Assembly: GCA_021833245.1 (NCBI GenBank)
Contig: JAKBGA010000002.1
Span: 1-58,642 of the forward strand
From: a bacterium
Lineage (GTDB): Bacteria; Patescibacteriota; Minisyncoccia; Phycocordibacterales; Phycocordibacteraceae
Length of the DNA stretch: 58,642 nt
Direction of reading: 5' to 3'
Every line of letters begins with the position of its first letter. Position 1 is the first letter of the stretch. Positions 1 through 12,535 of this stretch are shown here, piece after piece. The position numbers and the translations under genes were made by a program. The notes beneath the pieces were generated by a model. It was not told the DNA's origin. It saw nothing but the letters and a program-made list of their open reading frames with translations, and did not search any database.

Positions 1-507
1 TGGAGTGACGAACTGCTGTATGTGTCGCCGGTAATTGGATTCCGGTCGTCTGTGTGAGGGCGCGCGTTAGGGAAATCCGGCGCGCACATTCCCGAGCACG
101 GACGCAATTTCCTCTTTCGGGGGGAGAGAGGGCGCAAAGCGCGGTTTCAAGAAAACCTTCTAAGCATCAACTCTATAGACGACCGTACCGCAAACCGACA
201 CAGGTGGTCAGGTCGAGAAGACCAAGACGAACGAGTAAGATGTCCTCAAGGAACTCGGCAAAAAAGCGGCCGTAAGTTAGCGATAAGGCCTGCCCTTTCT
301 CCGTAAGGAGGCGGGGCCGCAGTGAAAGTTTCCCTGGCAACTGTTTACCAAAAACACAACTCCCTGCAAACTCGTAAGAGGAAGTATAGGGGGTGACACC
401 TGACCAATGCCGAAAGGTTAAGCACGGTGGGTCCTTCATAGCAATATGAAGGGCTGGACTGTGTATGCCCCGGTGAATGTCGGCGATAACTATAATCGTC
501 CTAAGGT

Positions 508-767
508 TCGCGGTACGACCCTCATGAAAATGAGAGTCGCTCCGCGAAGGACTAGGACGATTATGGAGGTAAACAACACAAGCTGCCTTGTTCTGTAGCA
601 ATACAGAACTTAGTCCAATCATAGCCATATGCTGGGAAGCGGATGGAAATTCGCGATCAGCAGGGAAGATTTGTGCGCTAATAAAGCGCATCAAAAACCC
701 TCAGATACCAAACGCTATGCTCCGCAAAAGCGGATGAAGTTATGGTACTTCGTTGAAAGGAACGAAC
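508..767 (+). mobile_element. ORF-less group I-like intron in 23S at ~E. coli U1931/A1932
   Basis: The conserved string cctaaggt (ends 507) | agcgtaattccttgtcgg (starts 768) is split by 260 nt absent from E. coli 23S. A guide-like gct-gccttg (582-590) pairs with both exon ends, with a U507.G585 wobble. A GAAA-capped hairpin spans 508-547. The last nt is C rather than omega-G, so the class or boundary is uncertain. Confidence 0.6.
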
Positions 768-1428
768 AGCGTAATTCCTTGTCGGGTAAGTTCCGACGTG
801 CACGAATGGTGTAATGACTGGGGAACTGTCTCGAGGACTCGCTCGGTGAAAATGCACTTCCGGTGAAGATGCCGGATACCTGTAGTTAGACGAAAAGACC
901 CCAGGAGCTTTACTACAGCTTCGTATTGGCGTTATGTGCTGCATGCGTAGCATAGAGAGGAGAGGTTGAAGCATCGGTTTTGGCTGATGTGGACTCGTCA
1001 GTGAAATACTCTTCTTGTTGTGTGTAACGTCTAACCCCAGCGGGATCCGCTGGGGGACCGTGCGTGGTGGGTAGTTTTGGTGGGGCGCTATCCTCCTAAA
1101 AAGTAACGGAGGAGTCTATTAAGGTTCTCTAGGCGCGAATGGAAACCGTGCCGATAGTGTAATGGCATAAGAGAGCTTAACTGCGAGGGGTACATCCCGA
1201 GCAGATGCGAAAGCAGAGCATAGTGAACCGATGGTACGCCTTAGAAGCGGCCAGAGATTAACGGATATAAGTTACCCTGGGGATAACAGGCTAGTTCCGC
1301 CCAAGCGTCCATAGCGACGGCGGAGTTCGGCACCTCGATGTCGGCTCACCTTAGCGCGGGGGTGGAGAAGCTCCCAAGCGTTTGGCTGTTCGCCAATTAA
1401 AAAGGTACGCGAGCTGGGTTCAAACCGT

Positions 1429-1680
1429 TCAGCAACTGATTTTGAATCGGTGATTGAACGGTTTGAACCCACGAGGAATAAGACAAAAATAAACTCACGG
1501 CGGTCTCGCATAGGAATATGCGGGAACCAAATCAACTAATATCGGTGGAACCCGCACTCGTTGTGTACGAGAGGGTAATACCGAGGGAAGCGAAAAGCAC
1601 CCGTAGAGACTGAATGTTGATCGCCCAGAACGGGCGAAGTTACAGTCCGATCCTCTGTGTAAGCAGAGTAAACATAGATG
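1429..1680 (+). mobile_element. ORF-less group I-like intron in 23S at ~E. coli U2593/C2594
   Basis: gggttcaaaccgt (ends 1428) | cgtgagacagg (starts 1681) corresponds to GGGUUUAGAACGU|CGUGAGACAG. The 252-nt insert ends in G1680. ctcacg-gcggt (1494-1504) forms a 6-bp P10 with 3' exon cgtgag and a 5-bp P1 with 5' exon accgt ending in U.G. Several GNRA-capped hairpins are present. Confidence 0.75.
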
Positions 1681-1743
1681 CGTGAGACAGGTTGGTCTCC
1701 TATCTACTACAGGCGTTGATTCTTGAGGAGGGTCGTCCCTAGT

Positions 1744-2144
1744 AAAGAATTGCTACTTCAGAGAGAAATCTCTGATGACAACGCGGCTTATAACGGTGAA
1801 GTCTACGGCGCTTCTGGTTTGAGAGTCGGATATCTTAAAGGTCCAGCGGATATCTAACTCACTTGAAAACCAGAATGTCGCTATGATAATACCGTGGGAA
1901 GTCGATTAAGTATTAACGATGCAGAATAAAAACTACACGAGCAAGAGACGAGAGATAAAACTGCTTCAGATACTTAGTTTGACCCCGTAACGACTTACGT
2001 TGAAACACACGTGGACTCATAGGTTTGAGGAATCATTTCATAGAGAATGACTGCTCCTATGGGTAAGATGCCGCCATCCTCATTTCGCATAAGCGGGGAA
2101 GGATGAAGATATAGTCTGCGCTCCTGGAAACAGGGGAAGAAGCG
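1744..2144 (+). mobile_element. ORF-less group I-like intron inside the 23S sarcin-ricin loop (~U2656/A2657)
   Basis: ccctagt (ends 1743) | acgagaggaccgg (starts 2145) rebuilds CCUAGUACGAGAGGACC. The 401-nt insert ends in G2144. A P1 hairpin tagta/tgcta (1740-1755) places a U1743.G1752 wobble at the junction. GAAA-capped hairpins include tcagaga-gaaa-tctctga. The boundary is ambiguous by 1 nt (A1744 = A2145). Confidence 0.7.
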
Positions 2145-2460
2145 ACGAGAGGACCGGGATGAACTGACCTCTGGTCTACCAGCTGTCCTGCCAAGGGCAC
2201 CGCTGGGTAGCTATGTCGGGTTGCGATAACCGCTGAAAGCATATAAGCGGGAAACGTGCTCCAAGATTAGGAATCGTTATGAGGCTCCTCGGAGATGACG
2301 AGGTTGATAGGCTCTAGATGGAAGCACCGTAAGGTGTGGAGTCGAGGAGTACTAATATGCCCAGTCTCTCGTGCGGAAATCTGTGTAGCACAATCGTTTG
2401 TTTGCACATAATCTTCAATACCAATGCGTGTTTTGTATACTTGAACATTTCGAATGTTCG

Positions 2461-2610: not shown

Positions 2611-2712
2611 CGTGGTGTAGCTCAGAGGTAGAGCGTCGAGGACGCCGGATGAGACATCTGGCAAACAAGCAAGTCTTCGAAGGTCGTTGGTTCGAATCCA
2701 ACCACCCGACCA
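2611..2712 (+). tRNA. Aberrant tRNA-like gene; anticodon not assignable
   Basis: It has a canonical D arm (tagctcagaggtagagc), a T arm (gttgg-ttcgaat-ccaac), an aggtc variable loop and an encoded A-CCA end. The acceptor stem is 6 bp with a bulged T2613. The anticodon stem tcgagga/tcttcga (2636-2642/2674-2680) encloses 31 nt, not 7, and no U33-NNN-R37 loop can be derived. Confidence 0.45.
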
Positions 2713-10567: not shown

Positions 10568-10597
10568 GATGTGTGAATTCTTTTGTTCCGCCTATTC
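10568..10597 (+). other. 16S processing-stem, 5' strand
   Basis: cttttgttccgcctattc (10580-10597) is perfectly complementary over 18 bp to gaataggcggaacaaaag (12213-12230). gtgtg/cacac extends the helix. Confidence 0.75.
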
Positions 10598-12064
<1,467 letters not shown>

Positions 12065-12373: not shown

Positions 12374-12446
12374 GCACGCGTAGCTCAGTTGGTAGAGCAC
12401 CCGACTGATACTCGGGCGGTCGTAGGTTCAACCCCTACCGCGTGCA
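12374..12446 (+). tRNA. tRNA-Ile (anticodon GAU)
   Basis: Cloverleaf: acceptor gcacgcg/cgcgtgc, D arm gctc-agttggta-gagc, anticodon arm cccga-ctGATac-tcggg, T arm gtagg-ttcaacc-cctac, discriminator A. CCA is not encoded. Confidence 0.9.
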
Positions 12447-12535
12447 CCGAATCAAGTAAGAAATGCATACTTAGAGGCGCCTGTTATACCCACACCATGT
12501 CTCGAAACTGATAGAACAGGGTTATACTAAAGGAA

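Follow-up and report, generated by a model that had tools for sequence, protein, structure and literature searches.

We analysed a 58,642-nucleotide (nt) stretch of bacterial DNA (contig JAKBGA010000002.1 of assembly GCA_021833245.1; "the window" hereafter means this whole stretch), which opens inside a 23S ribosomal RNA (rRNA) gene matched by the Rfam model LSU_rRNA_bacteria over window positions 1-1730 (884.8 bits). A 5S gene follows at 2463-2576, and a 16S gene lies unlinked at 10597-12064 (both Rfam). Our subject is the third insert in the 23S gene, at window 1744-2144 on the forward strand, which is almost certainly a group I intron without an open reading frame (ORF), placed between U2656 and A2657 (Escherichia coli numbering) in the 23S rRNA of a Kaiserbacteria-like bacterium belonging to the Candidate Phyla Radiation (CPR), or Patescibacteria. 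Its coordinates were checked directly in the sequence: ccctagt ends at 1743, the 401-nt insert has G2144 as its last base, and acgagaggaccggg runs from 2145. An original prediction, made from the letters alone, had described the sarcin-ricin loop as interrupted between 1743 and 2145 by 401 nt ending in G2144, and we confirm this. The intron, at large-subunit (LSU) site L2656, and its two exons are as follows.

1681-1743, forward strand: 23S exon of 63 nt between introns 2 and 3, equivalent to E. coli 2594-2656 in the rrlH alignment, with U1743 at the 5' splice site
1744-2144, forward strand: group I intron at site L2656, 401 nt, ORF-less (Rfam RF00028, covariation, absence from the relative L124)
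2145-2415, forward strand: 3' exon with the remaining sarcin-ricin loop and 23S, equivalent to E. coli 2657-2904 (200/200 nt identical to L124)

Numbering follows E. coli K-12 rrlH, in which AGTACGAGAGGACC occupies positions 2654-2667, and the alignment to it places the insert between U2656 and A2657, within AGUACGAGAGGACC (the sarcin-ricin loop), bearing out the earlier estimate of about U2656/A2657. Once the insert is removed in silico, the window and E. coli align colinearly across the sarcin-ricin loop and on to the 3' end of the 23S. A gap-tolerant alignment of the unspliced window against E. coli was dropped because it scattered the intron into several pseudo-gaps; only the spliced form aligns cleanly. 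The boundaries carry a 1-nt ambiguity because A1744 and A2145 are the same base, and the group I rule of a U.G pair at the 5' splice site and a terminal G therefore sets them at U1743/...G2144/. K-12 rrlH replaced another E. coli reference (the 23S copy of NZ_CP104647.1), which shows homopolymer errors in the sarcin-ricin region (AGTAACGAG). In that RefSeq copy, of 2906 nt, the sequence is CCTAGTAACGAGAGG; the additional A in the sarcin-ricin loop and a further extra base nearby are most likely homopolymer sequencing errors of the assembly.

A natural allele without the insert exists in a close relative. We scanned metagenome contigs with the lineage's ligated exon junction, GGGTCGTCCCTAGT joined to ACGAGAGGACCGGGATGAAC, and obtained 59 contigs. 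In the contig VFSW01014902.1 (L124) the sarcin-ricin loop is uninterrupted, T and A being contiguous at the site, and the exon flanks are identical to those of the window over 63/63 nt before and 200/200 nt after it. The 23S exons of the two are 98-99% identical, L124 carries introns 1 and 2 in the same places (90% and 96% identical), and synteny extends into downstream protein-coding DNA (82.5% over 1.4 kb). The third insert is therefore an element in its own right, discrete and optional, and its boundaries are fixed as above.

The Intron_gpI search that the original prediction had proposed as a check gives a match: the model (RF00028) aligns in full, positions 1-253, to window 1731-2137 with 34.7 bits and E = 3e-7, below the curated cut-off. 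Its alignment shows the group I core, namely P3, P4, P6, the P7 strand ACGACU, P8 (CAUCCU/AGGAUG), J8/7-P7' (GAAGAUAUAGUCU) and the GAAA hairpin of P9, with the hallmark AUCCU...AGGAUGAAGAUAUAGUCU. The minimum free energy (MFE) fold reaches -125.3 kcal/mol (z = -4.27), none of 100 shuffles being equally stable, and recovers by itself nearly all helices of the group I fold that we propose. We derived this fold from the window sequence together with its homologues; in window coordinates it consists of these elements.

1740-1744/1751-1755, forward strand: P1, UAGUA/UGCUA with loop AAGAAU and U1743.G1752; five pairs invariant, the U.G pair present in 18/18 homologues
1758-1764/1769-1775, forward strand: P2, 7 bp with a GAAA tetraloop; compensatory changes in 7/7 pairs, 99.2% of cells paired
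1783-1787 (GCGGC)/2070-2074 (GCCGC), forward strand: P3; compensatory changes in 4/5 pairs
1793-1895, forward strand: P4-P5 domain, made up of P4, P5, P5a and P5b
1793-1798/1890-1895, forward strand: P4, invariant but for one compensatory change of G-C to A-U; in the MFE fold
1802-1803/1885-1886, forward strand: P5; in the MFE fold
1812-1820/1867-1875, forward strand: P5a, partial covariation, 72% paired; in the MFE fold
1828-1834/1849-1855, forward strand: P5b hairpin, its loop holding the conserved GGUCC (1841-1845); in the MFE fold
1896-1986, forward strand: P6 with its extended loop, which holds the remnant of a LAGLIDADG gene
1896-1898 and 1901-1903/1981-1986, forward strand: P6, 100% paired with three covarying pairs
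1990-1995, forward strand: 5' strand of P7 (A1990, bulged C1991, GACU at 1992-1995), following J6/7; invariant in 18/18, fits the Rfam consensus AGACUA
1990 and 1992-1995/2113-2117, forward strand: P7; in the covariation set, no variation
1996-2000/2009-2013, forward strand: P7.1; compensatory changes in 4/5 pairs, in the MFE fold
2015-2023/2056-2064, forward strand: P7.2; compensatory changes in 8/9 pairs, in the MFE fold
2075-2080/2100-2105, forward strand: P8 hairpin; compensatory changes in 4/6 pairs
2106-2117, forward strand: J8/7 and 3' strand of P7, AAGAUAUAGUCU, family-invariant and used as search anchor; fits the Rfam consensus gAAGAUAUAGUC
2118-2120/2141-2143, forward strand: P9.0-like 3-bp helix enclosing P9; compensatory changes in 3/3 pairs
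2121-2126/2131-2136, forward strand: P9 with a GAAA loop; compensatory changes in 5/6 pairs
2144, forward strand: omega-G at the 3' splice site, from the sequence

Comparative evidence for these helices comes from an alignment of 18 ORF-less introns of 279-470 nt, the window copy included. Across 74 pairs, 91.4% of cells hold standard pairs, against 33-46% when the 3' partners are shifted along by 1-3 columns. Both sides change in 46 pairs, compared with 12-21 in these slid controls, and not one of 500 shuffles reaches any of the observed pairing measures. The helices that covary are P2, P3, P7.1, P7.2, P8, P9.0 and P9. P1 and P7 never vary, and P4 (one compensatory pair) and P6 (three) are nearly invariant; such invariance, to be expected of the helix between guide and exon and of the catalytic centre, is neutral with respect to structure. 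Two homologues (L019 and L121) have an extra small hairpin within the P1 loop, which fits the P1 topology. Because the search pattern imposed the omega-G on all aligned homologues, G2144 of the window is the independent observation of that base. The pair G1992-C2116 is the presumed guanosine-binding pair, by analogy with G264-C311 of Tetrahymena, and both L2 and L9 are tetraloops of the GNRA type, which usually act as tertiary clamps. The two hairpins between P7 and P3', the mark of subgroup IA in the Michel-Westhof scheme, both covary, and the intron may belong to that subgroup.

Parts of this fold had been anticipated. The original prediction pointed to a P1-like hairpin of tagta (1740-1744) and tgcta (1751-1755) with its U1743.G1752 wobble at the junction, to the hairpins tcagaga-gaaa-tctctga (1758-1775) and cctg-gaaa-cagg (2123-2134), and to a 9-bp pairing of ttctggttt (1812-1820) with aaaccagaa (1867-1875). 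All are present, the two hairpins as P2 and P9 of the group I fold and the long-range pairing as P5a, and the Intron_gpI match and covariation-backed fold likewise uphold its reading of the insert as a group I intron with these splice sites.

To place the intron among its relatives, species-representative genomes were scanned with GATATAGTC-N(10-40)-GACGAGAGGACCG, a pattern running from the J8/7 core through a short P9 and the omega-G into the 3' half of the sarcin-ricin loop. The arrangement ...GATATAGTC-N(10-40)-G/ACGAGAGGACCG occurs in at least 120 species-level genomes, overwhelmingly CPR/Patescibacteria by their record titles. The groups among the matches listed include Kaiser-, Zambryski-, Nomura-, Yanofsky-, Campbell-, Harrison- and Daviesbacteria, as well as Gottesman-, Magasanik-, Moran-, Doudna-, Andersen-, Kerfeld- and Falkowbacteria, WWE3 and others. 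Seven of the 120 matches listed (L017, L056, L079, L091, L094, L096 and L119) are labelled Elusimicrobiota, Gammaproteobacteria, Mycoplasmatales or Nanoarchaeota and are probably mis-binned or mislabelled CPR contigs. Placing the 5' splice site after ...YYTAGT by a simple rule allowed us to extract 84 introns, whose lengths show a bimodal distribution (279-470 and about 600-890 nt). By blastn the window intron is 76-90% identical to those of L107, L088, L026, L097, L053 and L040, and its nearest 23S relatives are Kaiserbacteria, with exons 95% identical to L040 and 93% to L026 and L053.

The site is already catalogued. Tsurumaki, Sato, Saito and Kanai (J Bacteriol 2024; PMC11270868) report inserts in 82% of 348 CPR 23S genes, with 14 frequent sites; position 2657, their 23IS14, is among those where LAGLIDADG_1 genes predominate, and that paper describes group I introns at 23IS14 as unreported in other bacteria. 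The hint in the original prediction that the site might be unrecorded is not borne out, given this entry ('2657', 23IS14) and the at least 120 occupied species-level genomes; its sense of novelty was right before 2024 and no longer is. Because the site is both catalogued and common, novelty is lowered and the annotation is unaffected. Our literature search on this LSU site and on group I introns in the sarcin-ricin loop, with organellar intron-site catalogues outside its scope, returned nothing else relevant, and positions 2656/2657 are unmentioned in a cyanobacterial LSU-intron compilation. With the 23IS14 introns of CPR bacteria (PMC11270868) the window intron has in common the site, a CPR/Parcubacteria host, the group I type and, in its relatives, the endonuclease family; where those carry LAGLIDADG_1 ORFs, the window copy is ORF-less and retains a gene remnant only. 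In its accessible portion the text of Tsurumaki et al. gives positions and ORF classes, and no secondary structure for the 23IS14 introns. What we add is small: a covariation-backed fold of the site family, a gene in the P6 loop (L6) that overlaps the core, an empty-site allele, and a decay series within one clade.

In most of the at least 120 occupied genomes, the P6 loop carries the gene for a single-motif LAGLIDADG endonuclease. The L6 insert of most long copies is in frame and 444-462 nt in length, almost always divisible by three, and its protein product, about 170 residues long and including ...AYIAGFLDGDGS..., matches Pfam LAGLIDADG_1 (PF00961; 44 bits, cut-off 23) and the single-motif enzymes of known structure I-MsoI, I-CvuI and I-CreI (E from 1e-9 to 1e-21). 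The N-terminus of the endonuclease is encoded by P4'/P6, where GAUAAUACCGUGGGAAGUCG reads DNTVGSR or, in the other frame, IPWEVD, and the gene ends ...GLTP-stop in UUGACCCCGUAA, its stop codon lying in J6/7. The two frames over AAUACCGUGGGAAGUCG (window 1886-1990) occur in different family members, for example L044 and L086, and the stop codon UAA is part of the invariant J6/7 ...CCCGUAACGACU. The family would spread by means of this homing endonuclease.

What the window copy retains is a ghost of this gene. Its frame reads IIPWEVD-stop and then VLTMQNKNYTSKRREIKLLQILSLTP-stop, leaving seven N-terminal and about 26 C-terminal codons, with an in-frame stop after codon 7; family endonucleases match window 1901-1987 over their last 31 residues with 48-58% identity (E = 5e-6, tblastn in a 2.5-kb search space), and, set against the Kaiserbacteria copy L026, the gene lacks about 400 nt. 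Among Kaiserbacteria-like loci the stages form a series: an intact gene in L026, L088 and L097 (introns of about 790 nt), a broken gene in L040 (618 nt), the ghost in the window (401 nt), no gene trace in L053 (337 nt) and an empty site in L124. This is a textbook instance of the Goddard and Burt cycle of gain, degeneration and loss (cited in PMC11270868), from which it does not differ. The window copy would thus be immobile and decaying, having lost about 400 nt of its endonuclease gene and kept the two ends, and would persist because its splicing is still required.

Among the closest known systems are also organellar and bacterial LSU introns such as the L2593 intron of the Chlamydomonas chloroplast (I-CreI) and the I-MsoI and I-CvuI introns, likewise group I introns of LSU domain V/VI with a single-motif LAGLIDADG enzyme of homodimer type. 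Introns of the I-CreI type and the window intron have in common the two extra hairpins that separate P7 from P3', a feature of subgroup IA introns in the Michel-Westhof classification. The window intron differs from the I-CreI-type L2593 intron in lying 63 nt downstream, inside the sarcin-ricin loop, and the L2656 family differs from I-CreI-type introns in having its ORF in L6, overlapping the P4'/P6 core and J6/7.

We infer that the window copy splices, perhaps autonomously, by standard group I chemistry. The guide UGCUA (1751-1755) would pair with exon UAGU and the first intron base to form P1, presenting U1743.G1752; the attack after U1743 would come from an external guanosine that occupies the P7 pair G1992-C2116 beside bulged C1991; G2144, held by the P9.0 pairing, would then take over the guanosine site; and the freed 3'-OH of U1743 would attack after G2144. 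This would join ...CCCUAGU to ACGAGAGGACC... and give CCCUAGUACGAGAGGACC, with the sarcin-ricin loop intact and an expected ligated junction of ...GGGTCGTCCCTAGT/ACGAGAGGACCGGG... It is reasonable to suppose, as the original prediction did, that the ribosome would need the insert to be removed precisely. CPR rRNA insertions were reported to be absent from transcripts (Brown et al. 2015, in the summary given in PMC11270868), which supports splicing for the class and not for the window copy specifically.

Several points weigh against this account. The Intron_gpI score of 34.7 falls below the curated gathering score of 50 bits, an annotation threshold and not a biological criterion, and is low because large peripheral inserts (P5a/b, L6 and P7.1/7.2) are passed over in the alignment. 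P1 holds just four exon base pairs, and no canonical P10 is found, the P1 loop AAGAAU (1745-1750) and the 3' exon ACGAGA (2145-2150) offering one possible pair; P10 is common in group I introns and not obligatory. The lost endonuclease might also have been a maturase, so that autonomous splicing is not guaranteed, and a second, intron-free 23S copy may lie elsewhere in the genome, the window starting inside the 23S gene.

Among the alternatives, the one that survives best is a variant of our explanation, in which a true group I intron depends for splicing in vivo on a protein helper, either a host factor or a LAGLIDADG maturase acting in trans. We consider such dependence unlikely, though worth taking seriously. 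It would agree with the short P1, with the fact that no P10 could be drawn, and with a family ORF threaded through the ribozyme core (N-terminus in P4'/P6, stop in J6/7), an arrangement typical of intron-protein co-evolution; LAGLIDADG proteins can, moreover, be maturases (PMC11270868). Against it stand ORF-less copies with an intact covarying core in 18 species, some of them (such as L053 and L096) without any trace of the gene, the L2 and L9 GNRA tetraloops as usual self-contained tertiary clamps, and the 23S part of the window, where no other LAGLIDADG ORF was found.

Two further ideas, a role for the P5b loop at the exon and the carriage of non-mobility cargo, seem improbable to us even when taken together. 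The P5b loop (C)GGUCC (1841-1845) is complementary to exon GGACC (2151-2155; E. coli 2663-2667), and 60/81 family members have GGTCC in their 5' half, the other variants being GGUCU, GGUUC, GAUCC and AGUCC. GGUCU and GGUUC keep the exon pairing through wobble, whereas GAUCC and AGUCC do not; the exon, for its part, cannot covary. The loop could be a 3'-exon or a tertiary contact. Introns of the L2656 family may do without P10, with GGUCC serving instead to hold or remodel the 3' exon, in which case splicing would double as a folding checkpoint for the sarcin-ricin loop. GAGGACC within the intron was rejected as a mimic of the exon, being the 3' strand of P5a. As for cargo, the locus L029 (JAITGI010000021.1, Ca. 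Nomurabacteria; positions 1710-2599 of the oriented locus) has an L2656 intron core without the LAGLIDADG gene and a P5 extension of 640 nt with a 155-aa ORF that matches GNAT acetyltransferases (Acetyltransf_3, 38.4 bits; Acetyltransf_1, 32.9 bits) and is framed by a long stem. This replacement of the endonuclease by a GNAT acetyltransferase hints that rRNA introns of this kind can carry non-mobility genes; it is seen in a single genome, and an assembly error is possible.

It is very improbable that the insert is a decayed, splicing-dead group I relic, either in a non-functional 23S copy or tolerated unspliced. The degenerate endonuclease gene and the sub-threshold Rfam score would be in keeping with such decay, and the window shows part of one rrl copy only; CPR genomes, however, usually carry a single rRNA copy (PMC11270868). 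The family-invariant core strands (P7, J8/7, J6/7, P4 and P6) are all intact in the window, and over 263 nt the exons match the intron-less allele of a relative with 100% identity, and are therefore under full constraint. EF-G and EF-Tu both require the sarcin-ricin loop, which 401 unspliced nt in AGUA/CGAGAGGACC would destroy. Least credible of all is an intervening sequence whose excision by RNase III, with no religation, would leave the 23S rRNA in fragments, given that the insert ends are not paired with each other (the 5' end lies in P1 with the exon, the 3' end in P9.0) and form no long stem, and that the insert sits in the universally conserved sarcin-ricin loop and not in a variable helix of the H9/H25/H45 type, a break within these 12 universally conserved nt being to our knowledge unprecedented. 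Bacterial 23S genes are known to contain fragmenting intervening sequences, also in bacteria with reduced genomes, and CPR members have short non-intron inserts, yet the known intervening-sequence sites in the survey, 23IS2 and 23IS4, belong to the gene's 5' part (PMC11270868).

The rest of the rRNA region has its own peculiarities. Its order is 23S-5S-(tRNA-like gene), about 8 kb of other DNA, 16S (10597-12064) and tRNA-Ile (12374-12448); the 16S gene is not upstream of the 23S and is without an insert, and the 3' half of the 23S contains three inserts. Insert 1 (window 508-767, 260 nt) follows E. coli U1931, a classical site, and matches Intron_gpI with 27.8 bits (E = 2e-4). By E. coli homology it ends in C767 and not in G, the nearest G being 764, which points either to a small indel in the mature rRNA or to an unconventional 3' splice site. 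Insert 2 (window 1439-1680, 242 nt; U1438/...G1680/C) lies at E. coli 2593/2594, another classical site and the I-CreI-type one, and leaves the 63-nt exon ahead of intron 3. It has no Rfam match even at E <= 10; clear homologues occur at the same site in the Kaiserbacteria-like loci L040, L073, L107, L053 and L124.

Just after the 5S lies a tRNA-like gene of 99 nt (window 2611-2709, forward strand), which scores 42.1 bits against Rfam tRNA (cut-off 29) and was not called by ARAGORN. Its acceptor, D and T arms look normal, and 37 nt stand in place of the anticodon loop. The stem is seemingly extended by UCGAGGAC (2636-2643) with GUCUUCGA (2673-2680), enclosing GCCGGAU-GAGAC-AUCUGGC and AAACAAGCAA. 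It could contain a short tRNA intron that is not group I, which would be unusual in a bacterium, or be a tRNA-like element or pseudogene.

We regard the result as good annotation and no discovery, as both site and phenomenon are already published and no new question is opened. For annotation, the 23S gene should be described as split, with its exons joined at 1743/2145; when the split goes undescribed, the sarcin-ricin loop looks missing and rRNA tools truncate the gene, as the Rfam LSU match ending at 1730 illustrates. For the biology of the group, the window intron is one more example of selfish introns being tolerated by CPR bacteria, even within the ribosome's 12 most conserved nt, and the series of intact, broken, ghost, clean and empty sites could serve to date intron turnover.

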